Positions 5,412-31,094 of a stretch of DNA of 64,000 nt are shown in pieces. This stretch comes from an uncultured Gammaproteobacteria bacterium (GTDB lineage Bacteria; Patescibacteriota; Microgenomatia; UBA8517). The number at the start of each line of letters is the position of its first letter. Position 1 is the stretch's first letter. Both the position numbers and the translations under genes were made by a program. The DNA lies in NCBI GenBank assembly GCA_964627195.1, contig CAZVJU010000003.1, positions 14,854 to 78,853 of the forward strand. The letters are read 5' to 3'. A model generated the notes under the pieces. It worked only from the letters and a program-made list of their open reading frames with translations, did not search any database and was not told where the DNA came from.

Positions 5412-5434
5412 TATATCACACAAGGTGTGATATA
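5412..5434. repeat. REP-like palindrome tatatcacac-aag-gtgtgatata
   Basis: Perfect palindrome. It belongs to the TATCAC-N-GTGATA family seen at seven other sites. Confidence 0.6.
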
Positions 5435-5474
5435 GCTTCACACATCCGGTAAATAAGCCGTTTTTGTTGAAGTG

Positions 5475-11291: not shown

Positions 11292-11960
11292 TTAGGATCT
11301 TCTATCTTTCAATACGAAAAGTACAAGCGCATCAATTACTATCGGTGCCAGGAAAAAAACATTGGCGTTCTTTAATAGCTCTATTGCAGATTCACTGAAA
11401 GACAAATCGGTCAGATTAACAGGAATTCTGATCCCCAGAACAAAAAGAAATGCAATTACGAAAAGACTGAAAAGGAAAAGAACAAGCGCGCCTTCCATAT
11501 CCTTTTTACTTGCAAACATAGAGTTTGCCACTTCAAAAATAAGTATGCCTGCCAAAATATTGCCCCACCATACATCACTAAAACGATCTGTCAAAATCAA
11601 ATAAAGGATAGTAAATATTATTAAAATTCCGAAAATAAAAGGCGCAACGCCAATCAAAAACCTGCGAACAGGGTCTGTTTTACCTATCCCGACGCTACCC
11701 AAATCTACCCCGCCTCCCTCTTCTTTAAACTTGGGTAAAAGTTCCAATTCACCCACCGGAACTAAAAGAAAAAGAGCAGCCAGAAAGTGAGAAATTTCGT
11801 GGATAAAAGTCCCGGGCAAATATACAACGGCAAAAAGGTACATGCTCCAATTTCTCCTTTTTGTAACTTGAAAGAAGAAATGAAAAACCTTCTGGTTGAC
11901 TCTTCGTGATAAAAAATAAAGACCGGTAATTTCCAAGAGAAGAAATAGTATGTAAACCAT
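11292..11960 (-). CDS. Membrane protein with an HExxH motif (putative zincin-like metallopeptidase, DUF3267-like)
   Basis: Multi-TM protein. FIHEISHFLAA contains HExxH. Confidence 0.4.
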   Translation of the reverse strand: MVYILFLLLEITGLYFLSRRVNQKVFHFFFQVTKRRNWSMYLFAVVYLPGTFIHEISHFLAALFLLVPVGELELLPKFKEEGGGVDLGSVGIGKTDPVRRFLIGVAPFIFGILIIFTILYLILTDRFSDVWWGNILAGILIFEVANSMFASKKDMEGALVLFLFSLFVIAFLFVLGIRIPVNLTDLSFSESAIELLKNANVFFLAPIVIDALVLFVLKDRRS

Positions 11961-11990
11961 TATCTCTTAAGTGTAGCAAGTATTAATTTC

Positions 11991-12053
11991 TTTCACACCG
12001 GGTGTGTGATTCAAATTGATAATTATAAATAGGGATCACACACCCGGTGTGGC
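11991..12053. repeat. REPIN-like doublet: two 17-bp REP-like units in inverted orientation (cacaccgggtgtgtgat / atcacacacccggtgtg) separated by about 20 nt
   Basis: The two units are exact reverse complements. The doublet lies in a divergent intergenic region. Confidence 0.7.
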
Positions 12054-12095
12054 TTAATTGTAGATTAGCATTAAGTTACATGCTAATGTGATAAT

Positions 12096-13295
12096 ATGAA
12101 AATCGTTTTGCCCAAAAGGCCTCCGAAATTTCGTTTTGATAGACATATCCCTATTATTGTTACTCTTCTTTTAGTAATCGGTGTGGGTTATTATTTTTTT
12201 AGTAACAAAACAACAGGGCTTCAAAAGTTAATCACAACTATAACCGCGGAGAAAGACAAAAATCTGGAGGAGTTAAATAAAATTAGGACGGAATTGGAAA
12301 CGCTTAAAGGCGAAGATCAGCTAAAAAGAAATAACGAGCTCCAGGCGGAAATTCAAAATATTGAAAAGTCGTACGACAAGGCAGTAACTATTTACGAAGA
12401 TTTGTTGGATTTGAAGGCCAAAACGAAGGATACCAAAACTCTTGACGAATTATTCGCAAAATCTCTGGCCCACTTAGCACAAAGGGATTTTAGCGCTGCA
12501 AATGCATCTTTGACCGGCCTTTCAACAAAAATTAAAGAGGAAGATACAAAGCTTGCTGCAAGTTTTACCATACCCCAGAGCATCCCCCAATCTAACGCTC
12601 CCCCAGGCTCAGGGTATGTGAGACAACAGGTTCAAACCGATACCGGAAGCTTCATGGTAAGCATCATTGCGGCTGATCTCGGAAGCACAAAAGTCATTGT
12701 CGACACTGCTGCCGATTCGGACTGCTCAAACGAGTGTCCTACACTGCCACTTGCAACCTATGTATCACGAACCGGTGCATTTGCCGGTGTAAATGGTTCT
12801 TACTTTTGCCCCGCAGATTATCCGTCGTGTGCAGGTAAAACAAATACATATGATCTTCTCGCCATGAACTATAAAAAGACCTATTTTAATTCGGGAAATA
12901 ATGTCTACAGCAACAATCCGGCAGTAATTTTCGGTGATAGCTATATCCGATTTGTCTCTTCGGCGTCTCAATGGGGCAGGGATACTTCGCCTAACGGAGT
13001 TTTATCAAACTATCCGCTTTTAGTAGCTGGAGGTAACATTACTTTTGGCGGAGACGATGACCCCAAAAAGGGCAGCAAGGGGGCAAGAAGCTTTGTTGCC
13101 AATAAAGGCAATACTGCTTTTATCGGTGTCGTCCATAATGCCACAGTTGCCGAATCAGCCCGAGTTATGAAATCTTTAGGAATGGAAAATGCACTCAATT
13201 TGGATGACGGTGGCTCGACTGCATTATGGAGTGGGGGTTACAAAGTCGGCCCCGGCCGCAATCTCCCCAATGTAATACTTTTTGTGAGAAAATAG
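12096..13295 (+). CDS. Phosphodiester glycosidase (NAGPA-like, DUF2233) family protein, N-terminal TM anchor plus coiled coil
   Basis: The C-terminal block ...ALNLDDGGSTALW is typical of the NAGPA family. An N-terminal TM segment is present. Confidence 0.6.
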   Translation: MKIVLPKRPPKFRFDRHIPIIVTLLLVIGVGYYFFSNKTTGLQKLITTITAEKDKNLEELNKIRTELETLKGEDQLKRNNELQAEIQNIEKSYDKAVTIYEDLLDLKAKTKDTKTLDELFAKSLAHLAQRDFSAANASLTGLSTKIKEEDTKLAASFTIPQSIPQSNAPPGSGYVRQQVQTDTGSFMVSIIAADLGSTKVIVDTAADSDCSNECPTLPLATYVSRTGAFAGVNGSYFCPADYPSCAGKTNTYDLLAMNYKKTYFNSGNNVYSNNPAVIFGDSYIRFVSSASQWGRDTSPNGVLSNYPLLVAGGNITFGGDDDPKKGSKGARSFVANKGNTAFIGVVHNATVAESARVMKSLGMENALNLDDGGSTALWSGGYKVGPGRNLPNVILFVRK

Positions 13296-17253: not shown

Positions 17254-17337
17254 GCTTTCCGCGCCCGCCTCCGCGGAAAGCGGTAATCACCCGGTAATCA
17301 CCCGGTAATCACCCGGTAATCACCCGTCAGGTGATAT
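17254..17337 (+). repeat. GC-rich hairpin (gctttccgcg...cgcggaaagc), then 4 tandem copies of the 11-mer cggtaatcacc, ending in a REP-like palindrome atcacccgtcaggtgatat
   Basis: Read directly from the sequence. The REP unit is the inverted partner of the units at 18061 and 18107. Confidence 0.7.
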
Positions 17338-17340
17338 ACA

Positions 17341-17369
17341 TTGACACAACTCGGAAATAGACATAGGAT
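17341..17369 (+). promoter_or_regulatory. Putative promoter for the transposase gene (TTGACA-N17-TAGGAT)
   Basis: A perfect -35 with a weak -10, ending 10 nt before the ATG. Confidence 0.3.
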
Positions 17370-17378
17370 ATTATTAAT

Positions 17379-18044
17379 ATGTCTGGAAAAAGAAATGTCA
17401 TATTTGCCAAAAACGAAATCTACCACCTTTTTAATCGTTCAAATGCTAACGAATCGATTTTCGTAAAGAAAAAGGAAATCACAAGATCTCTTAACTTGAT
17501 GTCATTTTACAGATTTAATCAAAGTTTGAGATTTTCTTTTTTTGACAGACTTCCTGAAGAACAAAAAGATAAGTATTTGGAAAAGACTTTAGGAAACGTA
17601 CCAAATGTTGACATACTTTCCTACTCCTTAATGCCTAACCACTTTCATTTACTCATAAAGCAAACAAATGAAAAAGGAATAAAAAATTATCTCTCTAATT
17701 TCCAGAACAGCTTTGCGAAATATTTTAATATAAAAAATAAAAGGTTTGGAACTCTTTTTCAGAGACCTTTTAAGGCTAAACATGTAGAATCTGACGAACA
17801 ACTTCTTCACATATCAAGGTACATCCATCTTAATCCTGTTACATCCTATATGATGGAGTTTGAGAATTTGAGAAGTAGTGACTTGACCTCTTTACAATTA
17901 TATTTAGATAAAAAGAAGTCTTGGGTTAATACTGATCTAATTATTAATTTAATAGGTTCGGTATCAAAATACGAAAAATTTGTGAAAGATCATGTTGACT
18001 ATCAAAGAAAATTAAGTAAAATCAAGCACTTGTTATTAGATTAG
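17379..18044 (+). CDS. IS200/IS605-family Y1 HUH transposase, REP-associated (RAYT-like)
   Basis: The HUH motif LMPNHFHLLI is present, along with the C-terminal catalytic-Tyr block LFQRPF...ISRYIHLNPV, which parallels LWQRSY...YI.NP of TnpA IS200. The gene is flanked by inverted REP-like palindromes. Confidence 0.8.
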   Translation: MSGKRNVIFAKNEIYHLFNRSNANESIFVKKKEITRSLNLMSFYRFNQSLRFSFFDRLPEEQKDKYLEKTLGNVPNVDILSYSLMPNHFHLLIKQTNEKGIKNYLSNFQNSFAKYFNIKNKRFGTLFQRPFKAKHVESDEQLLHISRYIHLNPVTSYMMEFENLRSSDLTSLQLYLDKKKSWVNTDLIINLIGSVSKYEKFVKDHVDYQRKLSKIKHLLLD

Positions 18045-18130
18045 TAAGGTGTGTGAACCAATATCACCTGACGGGTGATACGTAGATTAGTAAGGTGTGT
18101 GAACCAATATCACCTGACGGGTGATACGCC
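18039..18130 (+). repeat. 2 x 46-bp tandem direct repeat (gattagtaaggtgtgtgaaccaatatcacctgacgggtgatacg), each containing a REP-like palindrome
   Basis: The two copies differ only at their last 2 nt. The first copy overlaps the transposase stop codon. Confidence 0.8.
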
Positions 18131-18152: not shown

Positions 18153-18173
18153 ATATCACTCCCGGCGTGGATT
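18153..18173. repeat. REP-like variant tatatcactcccggcgtggat, followed by a tRNA T-loop-like ttcgaacc
   Basis: Same TATCAC...GTG family, with an imperfect right arm. Confidence 0.45.
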
Positions 18174-18195
18174 CGAACCTAATAAGACTTAATTC

Positions 18196-18870
18196 CTAAA
18201 GTTTGTAATTCGAAACTATCTCGTAACTGGCGTAGGGCACGACTTCATCATCAAAAAGGCACATTTTTATTTCCGGCCAGCAATTATCTAAAGCTTTGAT
18301 TTCTTGAATCGAGTACCACTTCACTCCTTCCAGTAACTTCATTGATTCTTTTTCGGTAGGGGTTATTTCAACCTGAAACATGACCTGACCGTCATCAAAA
18401 AGGGATTCACCATCAAGGGTTTTAACGATTTTAGCGTGAAGAGATTTATATTCAAATCTGACTGAGGGGATTTCAATCCCAGTATTCTCTTTAAAGAGTC
18501 TCACTAAGGCAGCTTCCATCGGTTCACCAAACATAGGCCGGCCACTGGGGAAGTTATAGAAATTAATTTTGGCGGTAGGGTGACTTTTTAGTAAATAGTT
18601 GCCGTGACCATCGTGAACAATAAAGCCACAAAAAAAGGTTTTTATTCCCTGCTCACTCAGATCAGATAATTCATAGTTATAAATTTCCTTAATTCCGGTT
18701 GGGGTAATAGCATAGGTATTGTCTTCTTTTTCGATAAATTGATTCTCCAGCAACTGGTTCAGGTGGAAGACTATATTGTTTTCGAAGTTATATCCCCGGG
18801 TTAAAGCCGCATATTTCTGGTTATTTTGTTGGGCAAGCCTTTTAAGTAATACCTTTTGGGTACGGTGCAT
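18196..18870 (-). CDS. wHTH-Nudix-like protein (N-terminal winged-helix-like region plus degenerate Nudix box), paralog 1
   Basis: The block GRPMFGEPMEAALVRLFKENTGIE fits a degenerate Nudix box Gx5Ex7R..E..GI. Much of it aligns by eye with 24670..25344, which has the same 224-aa length. Confidence 0.5.
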   Translation of the reverse strand: MHRTQKVLLKRLAQQNNQKYAALTRGYNFENNIVFHLNQLLENQFIEKEDNTYAITPTGIKEIYNYELSDLSEQGIKTFFCGFIVHDGHGNYLLKSHPTAKINFYNFPSGRPMFGEPMEAALVRLFKENTGIEIPSVRFEYKSLHAKIVKTLDGESLFDDGQVMFQVEITPTEKESMKLLEGVKWYSIQEIKALDNCWPEIKMCLFDDEVVPYASYEIVSNYKL

Positions 18871-27472: not shown

Positions 27473-27621
27473 ATAGAAGTCCACGGCTTTAAGCCGTGGT
27501 CCTTCGAGCTACATTCGCCACAGGCGTTTGAATTTTCAATGATTCAATTCATCCACGTATAAGCAAAGCTTGGCACCGCTTCGCGTTGTAAAGACGTGGA
27601 CTTCTTGAATTAGCTTAAAAG
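27473..27621 (+). repeat. MITE-like multi-hairpin element, copy 2 (149 nt, with a 31-nt internal insertion)
   Basis: Same termini and hairpins as copy 1. The first hairpin is perfect: ccacggc-tttaa-gccgtgg. There is an extra ataagcaaagcttggcaccgcttcgcgttgt inside the third hairpin. Confidence 0.75.
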
Positions 27622-27662: not shown

Positions 27663-27697
27663 CCAGGTGTGTCTATCTGTATCACTCCTGATGTGAT
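27663..27697. repeat. Composite REP-like element: ccaggtgtgtctatct followed by tatcactcctgatgtgat
   Basis: Both halves recur at 30969-30984 and 31075-31094. There they are separated by a hairpin-rich 90-nt insert. Confidence 0.6.
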
Positions 27698-30968: not shown

Positions 30969-31094
30969 CCAGATGTGTCTATCTACAGATGTCACATTTT
31001 GAAATCGGACTAAAATGTGACATATGCTATAGAAATCACCACTAATATAGTCCTACTTCATAATGTGATTTCTATATATCACTCCTGGTGTGAT
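30969..31094. repeat. Interrupted composite REP-like element: ccagatgtgtctatct, two nested inverted repeats, then tatatcactcctggtgtgat
   Basis: The inverted repeats are tgtcacatttt/aaaatgtgaca and atagaaatcac/gtgatttctat. Compare the compact version at 27663-27697. Confidence 0.55.

Follow-up and report, generated by a model that had tools for sequence, protein, structure and literature searches.

What is a perfect pair of inverted repeats, set between the start codons of two divergent genes, in a bacterium that belongs to one of the candidate phyla? The pair in question, here called the doublet, occupies positions 11994 to 12051 of a 64,000-nt stretch of contig CAZVJU010000003.1 (positions 14,854 to 78,853, forward strand; assembly GCA_964627195.1), which is referred to as the window throughout. 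The assembly is labelled as an uncultured Gammaproteobacteria bacterium with a GTDB lineage in the Patescibacteriota (Microgenomatia, UBA8517), and coverage of the source genome amounts to about 71 kb, that is the window and ~7 kb to its right. An original prediction made from the letters alone had read the doublet as a REP doublet forming a hairpin (REPIN), where REP stands for repetitive extragenic palindrome, the mobile unit of REP-associated tyrosine transposases (RAYTs). Our analysis finds this the probable answer: the doublet would be a REPIN-type element, composed of an inverted pair of short REP hairpins around a variable spacer and belonging to a RAYT-linked REP family.

The doublet and its fold

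The doublet is composed of three parts.

11994 to 12010, plus strand: REP arm 1, CACACCGGGTGTGTGAT, consisting of the 13-nt palindrome CACACCGGGTGTG and an inner foot TGAT
12011 to 12034: AT-rich spacer TCAAATTGATAATTATAAATAGGG, 24 nt, 21% G+C, itself nearly palindromic
12035 to 12051, minus strand: REP arm 2, ATCACACACCCGGTGTG in plus-strand letters, the exact reverse complement of arm 1

The two 17-nt arms are exact reverse complements as originally described, and arm 2 was placed correctly at 12035-12051, while arm 1 had been put at 11995-12011 instead of 11994-12010; the spacer is AT-rich as stated, with 24 nt in place of about 20 nt. Left unmentioned was that each arm holds a 13-nt palindrome of its own, CACACC-G/C-GGTGTG, whose centre base is flipped from G in arm 1 to C in arm 2. 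The arm starts are 41 nt and the palindrome centres 45 bp apart. Allowing up to three mismatches, the 17-mer has two sites in the 64 kb, both in the doublet, where 0.05 are expected, and none of 100 shuffles contained two matches. The doublet is furthermore the top-ranked local inverted repeat of the window, with 29-nt arms that are 86% complementary and meet without a gap. A fold prediction, which had been suggested as a check, turns the single strand into one long and stable hairpin, at −37.8 kcal/mol (z = −8.2) for RNA and at −21.3 and −20.2 kcal/mol (z about −7) for the two DNA strands, and the single arms fold as DNA with −4 to −4.7 kcal/mol.

REPINs are operationally defined as opposite-strand REPs less than 130 bp apart with a less conserved spacer (bioRxiv 10.1101/2021.07.10.451892). 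The doublet has this build, with two opposite-strand REPs within that distance, a less conserved sequence between them and in each REP a palindrome of 13 nt, where about 14 bp are usual, that is capable of forming a hairpin. Two other identities were considered for the folded region and rejected. Arm 2 was flagged as a terminator-like stem by a scan, but this stem stands where two genes begin on either side of it, and it is not followed by a T-run. A known RNA family was ruled out as well, as Rfam at gathering thresholds yields only two tRNAs in the window and a permissive search of the doublet region returned only sub-threshold matches to generic miRNA-precursor hairpins.

A hairpin family and its associated transposases

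We refer to the doublet hairpin CACACC-S-GGTGTG, with the full form ATCACACACCSGGTGTGTGAT, as REP-A and to the hairpin that flanks the RAYT-like gene of the window as REP-B. Searched for exact matches in one genome per species, CACACCSGGTGTGTGAT gave at least 117 loci, with ~140 chance matches estimated in the 596 Gb searched. The matches from Patescibacteria, for which candidate phyla radiation (CPR) is another name, are mostly the full 21-nt perfect palindrome, which recurs on many contigs per genome: at least 13 copies were counted in Amesbacteria MEXE01, at least nine in JAHJSD01 and at least seven in CAZFAN01, for a chance expectation of the 13-nt core that we estimate at ~0.06 per Mb genome. 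At loci L011, L095, L108, L021 and L094 (L numbers are our handles for the loci retrieved), the stem is extended by flanking bases that differ and are nonetheless complementary. Matches in high-G+C genomes (Streptomyces, Mycobacterium and others) are single and half-extended and were taken as chance, and a phage origin was set aside with only three single, non-palindromic 17-mer matches in a viral collection, which is the chance level. Some of the palindrome-carrying metagenome-assembled genomes bear the label Gammaproteobacteria.

Among 60 REP-A sites from CPR loci, a crude open reading frame call puts 46 outside genes: 14 in convergent, 24 in tandem and 8 in divergent spacers. As all three kinds of spacer are used, REP-A is not promoter-specific, and it behaves like a REP rather than like an operator. 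This recurrent perfect palindrome of CPR intergenic regions is probably a REP-family repeat associated with a RAYT-like clade. In JAHJSD01 (L027, L056, L071, L085, L089 and L099), REP-A forms the 5' end of a repeat of more than 100 nt, in the order hairpin, third arm (a short motif described below), second hairpin CGATCCTGGA...TCCAGGATCG and then GTGATTATCCAAAATAA, which suggests a composite element resembling bacterial interspersed mosaic elements or miniature inverted-repeat transposable elements (MITEs).

The link to a transposase comes from the genes that carry REP-A at their ends. It is found within ~20 nt of both ends of a gene for a protein of 222-239 residues at L002 (Beckwithbacteria), L011 (Gottesmanbacteria), L016 and L113 (both Amesbacteria) and L059, and near both ends of RAYT homologs, at 20-140 nt, in L027, L141 and L167. 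The REP-A-flanked proteins match Pfam Y1_Tnp above its cutoff, and their only NCBIfam match is NF047646, the REP-associated tyrosine transposase (E = 1e-16 to 3e-11).

One RAYT-like gene is present in the 64 kb, 5.3 kb from the doublet and with an intact reading frame. Its locus reads as follows.

17281 to 17326, plus strand: 11-nt tandem repeat in 4.2 copies, CGGTAATCACC, reiterated REP-B left half-arms
17319 to 17335, plus strand: REP-B upstream of the RAYT gene, ATCACC-CGTCA-GGTGAT (ATCACCCGTCAGGTGAT)
17341 to 17354, plus strand: third arm (m2), TTGACACAACTCGG, 5 nt after the upstream REP-B and pointing into the RAYT gene
17379 to 18044, plus strand: RAYT-like HUH/Y1 transposase gene, 221 residues, HUH at H88/H90 and catalytic tyrosine Y148 in RYIHLNP
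18063 to 18079, minus strand: REP-B downstream of the RAYT gene, inverted relative to the upstream copy
18109 to 18125, minus strand: second downstream REP-B, within a perfect 46-nt tandem duplication (two copies, 18037-18128)
18155 to 18171: degenerate remnant of a REP-like hairpin, ATCACTCCCGGCGTGGAT, immediately 3' of the RAYT flank and no longer folding

The Y1 HUH domain is present with its HUH motif and catalytic tyrosine intact, and H88, H90 and Y148 are invariant in the RAYT alignment. In tblastn, the window RAYT shares 42% identity with its REP-A-flanked counterparts at L002 and L011 (E about 1e-50); it scores 33.9 bits against Pfam Y1_Tnp (PF01797; cutoff 23) and matches a single NCBIfam family, REP_Tyr_transpos (NF047646), at E = 5e-12 and 45.8 bits, which is under the 80-bit cutoff. 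Among solved structures, the family profile matches E. coli TnpA-REP (4ER8) best; this match is marginal (E = 0.013), with both motifs aligned. REP-B hairpins stand on both sides of the gene in inverted orientation, and such inverted hairpins on either side of a Y1 transposase are the hallmark of RAYTs. Two smaller observations belong to the downstream flank: the 46-nt duplication doubles a whole hairpin-plus-third-arm unit, and beside the decayed hairpin, at 18165-18200, the sequence GGATTCGAACC resembles a tRNA T-arm and may be a tRNA fragment, for which ARAGORN made no tRNA call.

REP-A and REP-B have the frame ATCAC...CC / GG...GTGAT in common. The window RAYT is flanked by REP-B and not by REP-A, so its cognate relation to the doublet is one that we infer; with the shared stem frame and its place in the tree described below, it appears to be the best candidate enzyme. 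Genomes with more than one such enzyme exist, as PFMK01 contains two RAYTs, with 41% identity between them and separate hairpins for each, and several divergent RAYTs in one genome are also known in Pseudomonas. An origin of the doublet from a second RAYT elsewhere in the genome, or as a relic insertion, is equally possible and weakens the case for the window enzyme.

A metagenome scan with the RAYT alignment recovered more than 560 relatives, from which 80 loci were kept. Matching short hairpins occur on both flanks at about 39 of 83 tabulated RAYT loci, and their sequence differs by lineage (CCACCCCTGGGGTGG, TTCCACCTTTAAGGTGGAA, TTCCACCCGTCGGGTGGAA, AGATTACACCTCTAAGGTGTAATCT and AACACCGGGTGTT are examples besides REP-A), which is the co-variation expected of a transposase and its cognate hairpin. 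One large clade has in common a CACC-loop-GGTG stem top, which is found in both REP-A and REP-B, and a neighbour-joining tree without support values places the window RAYT among RAYTs that are flanked by REP-A or near variants (L141, L027, L011).

The stem frame also recurs within the window, where ATCAC-N7-GTGAT is found six times for 0.06 expected. Three of these sites are those at the RAYT gene, and the others, together with a separate third-arm copy, are listed here.

5415 to 5431, plus strand: REP-like hairpin ATCACAC-AAG-GTGTGAT with third arm TTCACACATCCGG at 5437-5449; DNA fold z = −6.7
27681 to 27697, minus strand: REP-like hairpin ATCAC-N7-GTGAT with third arm at 27663-27675 (minus), between convergent genes
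30969 to 30981, minus strand: separate third-arm copy, adjoining another hairpin (30986-31026) near the hairpin at 31078
31078 to 31094: REP-like hairpin ATCACTCC-T-GGTGTGAT

The third arm, TT[G/C]ACAC..C.GG, follows the hairpin after 3-5 nt in several window copies, and in many CPR loci it is found at a constant distance behind REP-A. On the two sides of RAYT genes the third arms point inward (window, L027), and at L131, L133 and L138 the motif is complementary to the hairpin loop and 3' arm, which suggests alternative pairings. Its TTGACA-like letters are not those of a −35 box, a candidate that was ruled out as a general reading since a consistent −10 is absent and three of four window copies face gene 3' ends or a convergent tRNA gene; facing gene 3' ends, the third arm is part of the repeat and not a promoter. 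In a 230-nt spacer between convergent genes, a further inverted repeat at 27475-27605 with 17-nt arms (94% complementary, 97 nt apart) was noticed, which may be an unannotated structured RNA and for which Rfam gave no match even at a permissive threshold.

Hairpins next to a Y1 transposase could also be expected of a MITE-like derivative (PATE type) of a selfish insertion sequence (IS) of the IS200/IS605 family, as opposed to the REPIN of a domesticated, vertically inherited RAYT, and we regard this origin as unlikely. The window enzyme is a member of the Y1_Tnp family, remains under the RAYT equivalog cutoff and matches the solved structures of IS200/IS605 TnpA (ISDra2) about as well as that of E. 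coli TnpA-REP, but its best NCBIfam family is the RAYT family and its YIxxNP motif aligns with that of E. coli TnpA-REP. Identical flanking hairpins on the same strand, like the left and right ends of an IS, were found at L149, L150, L156, L163 and L166, whereas the flanks are clearly inverted at the window RAYT, as they are at L143, L187, L190 and L195; this mixed orientation may separate IS-like from RAYT-like subgroups. The low copy numbers would also suit an IS, yet no identical RAYT duplicates were seen (the PFMK01 pair has different hairpins), hairpins outnumber the transposase among the loci fetched (at least 13 REP-A sites for one RAYT seen in MEXE01), and viral contigs contain the 17-mer no more often than chance.

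The site in relatives and its promoters

The doublet is extragenic, as is characteristic of REPINs, and stands between the divergent start codons at 11960 (minus) and 12096 (plus). Its original placement between a gene for an HExxH membrane protein and a NAGPA-like gene is borne out by a Pfam match and a conserved N-terminus. The NAGPA-domain gene (PF09992) starts at 12096, and its homologs mark the organism as Candidatus Woesebacteria (Microgenomates/Patescibacteria). The HExxH gene (11292-11960, minus strand) encodes 222 residues, and its start at 11960 is confirmed by a relative in which the N-terminus is conserved from Met1 onward, with 73% identity over 221 residues. The automatic gene call on an identical contig begins 39 codons late (183 residues). 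The HExxH protein, 73% identical in relatives, has no Pfam family, and homology to the RAYT-sized hairpin-flanked genes was not found.

Comparison with close relatives, the check originally proposed, came out against an ordinary conserved operator. Six syntenic Woesebacteria relatives (L122, L125, L128, L210, L211 and L213) keep the gene order with a NAGPA protein that is 74-78% identical and intergenic regions of 27-146 nt, and the doublet is absent between the two genes in all six, so that the pattern expected of an ordinary operator, the same sequence throughout, was not observed. An ATCAC-N7/N11-GTGAT hairpin was not found anywhere in the loci of these relatives. This absence identifies the doublet as an insertion and not as an ordinary conserved operator. 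Four contigs with an identical NAGPA protein, from the four groundwater samples ERZ27254809, ERZ27254844, ERZ27254791 and JGI 3300025322, all have the identical doublet.

What the relatives retain are short blocks next to the two start codons. The block TTTAAGTGTA adjoins the HExxH start in the window and in relatives, and the block GTAGATTAG...TGCTAAAGT stops exactly 6 nt before the NAGPA start in the window and five of the six relatives, L210 being the exception; the same five thus retain the promoter-like block without having the doublet, which lies between the two blocks and outside both. An extended −10-like TGnTAAAGT ends exactly 6 nt before the NAGPA start in the window (12059-12095) and in L122, L125, L128, L211 and L213, and TGCTACACT near the HExxH start (11961-11975) is an extended −10. 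Such −10-like blocks adjacent to the starts suggest that the two divergent promoters are very compact and that their mRNAs are leaderless. The likely NAGPA −35 (TAGATT) lies 9 nt downstream of the doublet, and on the HExxH side only the left edge of the doublet touches the −35 zone that goes with the extended −10. Neither core promoter is disrupted by the doublet, which by these alignments appears to be a lineage-specific insertion between two conserved core promoters.

The doublet had also been said to overlap likely promoter DNA. This applies to the left edge in the HExxH −35 zone and not to the conserved start-adjacent blocks, which lie outside. An effect of the doublet on expression, through a cruciform or altered spacing, is conceivable, and the case for it is weaker than originally implied.

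Doublets of the same kind were found at other sites. At L023 (7888-7944), a doublet of the same geometry, with a spacer 75% identical to that of the window, is located at a non-orthologous site upstream of an unrelated secreted-protein gene. L023 is labelled Gammaproteobacteria, although its G+C content and proteins look CPR-like. The doublet at L056 (2906-2963) has the same 45-nt geometry and spacer length, with the third arm serving as spacer. Between the window, L023 and L056 the arms are conserved and the spacers diverge. Tighter doublets, 24 nt apart, were found at five further loci. The centre base is flipped between copies in eight of nine doublets (one-sided binomial probability about 0.02), which means that the copies are in inverted orientation. 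Presence at non-orthologous sites combined with absence in relatives is the distribution expected of a REPIN. About 4.7 kb past the right end of the window, in the same species, L217 (2517-2553) holds an inverted doublet built from a different hairpin, CACCTCCGAGGTG and CACCTCGGAGGTG with 11 nt between them; it lies between convergent genes and has a third CACC..GGTG hairpin nearby.

A pair of palindromic operators, through which a dimeric transcription factor would control both divergent genes and whose link to RAYTs would be incidental, is very unlikely to explain these data. Two 13-bp palindromes with centres 45 bp apart in a divergent promoter region do have the look of operators, and the motif is kept across several Microgenomates lineages, but six syntenic relatives are without it, five of which keep the NAGPA promoter block. 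In many CPR loci the palindrome stands at a fixed distance from a TTGACA-like hexamer, but this hexamer faces away from gene starts at three of the four window copies, and the sites are not restricted to promoter spacers, as 14 of the 46 extragenic ones lie between convergent genes and several sites overlap stop codons. The same palindrome stands near both ends of RAYT genes, at least 13 perfect 21-mers per ~1-Mb genome are atypical for operators, and stem-extending co-variation (L011, L095, L108) speaks for a hairpin rather than for a protein-binding site in duplex DNA. By its absence from the six relatives, its copies in convergent spacers and its copies at both RAYT ends, a conserved operator is ruled out.

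Least probable of all is that the doublet, whatever its origin, now has a structural role as a cruciform-prone spacer or insulator between the promoters or as a 5' hairpin on a read-through transcript, for although the long hairpin is very stable, REPs in other bacteria affect mRNA stability and DNA topology, the promoters are compact (135 nt from start to start in the window vs only 38 nt in L125) and a weak promoter-like match on the minus strand (12086-12057) would drive transcription across the doublet, such matches are at background (two found vs 1.5 expected), the relatives manage without the doublet and Rfam offers no family, only sub-threshold generic hairpins.

Probable mobility, kinship and meaning

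With the rival explanations weighed, a REPIN-type element remains the probable identity of the doublet. The original call is upheld by the exact hairpin at the flanks of RAYTs in other genomes, the RAYT of the window, the six relatives without doublet and the copy at L023; it is weakened by the exact REP-A, which is seen nowhere in the 64-kb window outside the doublet, and by the window RAYT, whose flanks are REP-B, related to REP-A but different from it. Several further points count against it, besides the same-strand hairpins of five loci already mentioned. Classical REPIN populations comprise tens to hundreds of copies per genome. The REP-A-flanked RAYTs reach 43-60 bits where the NF047646 equivalog cutoff is 80 bits, and these scores point to a divergent RAYT group rather than the curated one. 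The contrast between presence and absence is one between species that are only ~75% identical at the protein level, and no within-species polymorphism of the doublet was seen among the four samples, which are identical. Finally, no GTAG tag stands beside the hairpin, the foot being ATCA/TGAT; a GTAG or CGTC foot tag is typical of proteobacterial REP groups and not universal.

By analogy with RAYTs and their REPs and with IS200/IS605 elements, a mode of movement can be outlined. The element would become single-stranded during replication or transcription and fold into hairpins. A RAYT, possibly that of the window, would recognise the hairpin and its flanks on single-stranded DNA and would cut and rejoin this strand through its HUH-plus-tyrosine site, as in E. 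coli TnpA-REP and IS608-type enzymes, whereby the doublet would be copied or moved to a new extragenic site. In the Woesebacteria lineage, one copy would have landed between the divergent HExxH and NAGPA promoters and persisted there.

The closest known relatives of such an arrangement are the REPIN-RAYT systems of Gammaproteobacteria, with Group 2 RAYTs in E. coli and Neisseria and Group 3 RAYTs in Pseudomonas (Bertels & Rainey 2011, PMC3116915; Bertels et al. 2017, PMC5581495). Both have inverted, extragenic REPs with palindromes of ~13-14 nt that fold across a variable spacer into one long hairpin, a hairpin close to both ends of a HUH/Tyr Y1 gene that co-varies with the transposase lineage, more hairpins than transposases, and genomes that can contain several divergent RAYTs with their own hairpins. 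The systems described here differ by their patescibacterial hosts with ~1-Mb genomes, by exact copies that number, as lower bounds, up to about a dozen or more per genome vs tens to hundreds, and by being mostly perfect 21-nt palindromic singlets with doublets in the minority. Moreover, they are without a GTAG tag and have an extra third arm 3-5 nt from the hairpin, their RAYTs, of 220-240 residues, have an extension that is conserved at the C-terminus and do not reach the NCBIfam RAYT cutoff, and one hairpin is common to RAYTs that are only 35-45% identical.

Compared with E. coli TnpA-REP (RayT/YafM) in complex with REP DNA (PDB 4ER8; Messing et al. 2012, PMC3479197), the HUH and Y-I-x-x-N-P motifs align, whereas the overall similarity is marginal, the E. 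coli enzyme has 165 residues and, in its REP, the stem is preceded on the 5' side by a GTAG guide. IS200/IS605 TnpA enzymes (IS608, ISDra2) have the Y1 HUH fold in common with the window RAYT and, if the analogy holds, the recognition of a subterminal single-stranded hairpin and non-autonomous hairpin derivatives; at the window RAYT both flanks have the same hairpin in inverted copies, whereas an IS ends in two distinct hairpins that lie on one strand and occurs as a whole in multiple copies. The GTAG- and CGTC-tagged palindromic repeats (Di Nocera et al. 2013, PMC3733652) are likewise short, abundant extragenic palindromes linked to RAYTs, but the stem foot of REP-A is ATCA/TGAT, and CGTC occurs in the loop of REP-B.

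This kind of system is therefore well known, and what is new is the host group, the Patescibacteria, for which it does not seem to have been described. In full-text searches, no paper was found to connect Patescibacteria, CPR or Microgenomates with REPIN, RAYT or repetitive extragenic palindromes; Patescibacteria are absent from the top-ranked RAYT/REPIN papers, and repetitive extragenic palindromes from the top-ranked CPR papers. One paper, which is unread, contains both 'REP-associated tyrosine transposase' and 'candidate phyla radiation', and a survey of HUH endonucleases leaves these phyla unmentioned. Unusual are the perfect palindromic 21-mer common to deeply diverged RAYTs, the third arm, the low copy number and the longer protein. 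As REP-A is identical across RAYTs that are 35-45% identical and across several lineages of candidate-phylum level, and doublets persist in ~1-Mb genomes, we tentatively suggest, as a proposal that could fall either way and that we hold less firmly than the identity of the doublet itself, that a RAYT group not described before, whose cognate hairpins have in common a CACC-loop-GGTG stem top and a third arm, is widespread in Patescibacteria.

For the annotation of CPR genomes, the REP-A family accounts for a recurrent perfect palindrome of intergenic regions that one might otherwise take for an operator or a terminator. In the literature, REPIN-RAYT systems figure as ancient replicators that are inherited vertically within bacterial genomes, and they have, to our knowledge, been characterised almost entirely in Proteobacteria. 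If the doublet is what we take it to be, their host range would extend to Patescibacteria, whose tiny, gene-dense genomes are a place where non-coding repeats are expected to be under strong negative selection, and these genomes would provide a natural test of how REP populations scale with genome size and of whether they persist through usefulness. A distinct CPR group of RAYTs, should it exist, would imply long-term retention, and possibly a benefit to the host, in some of the most reduced bacterial genomes.

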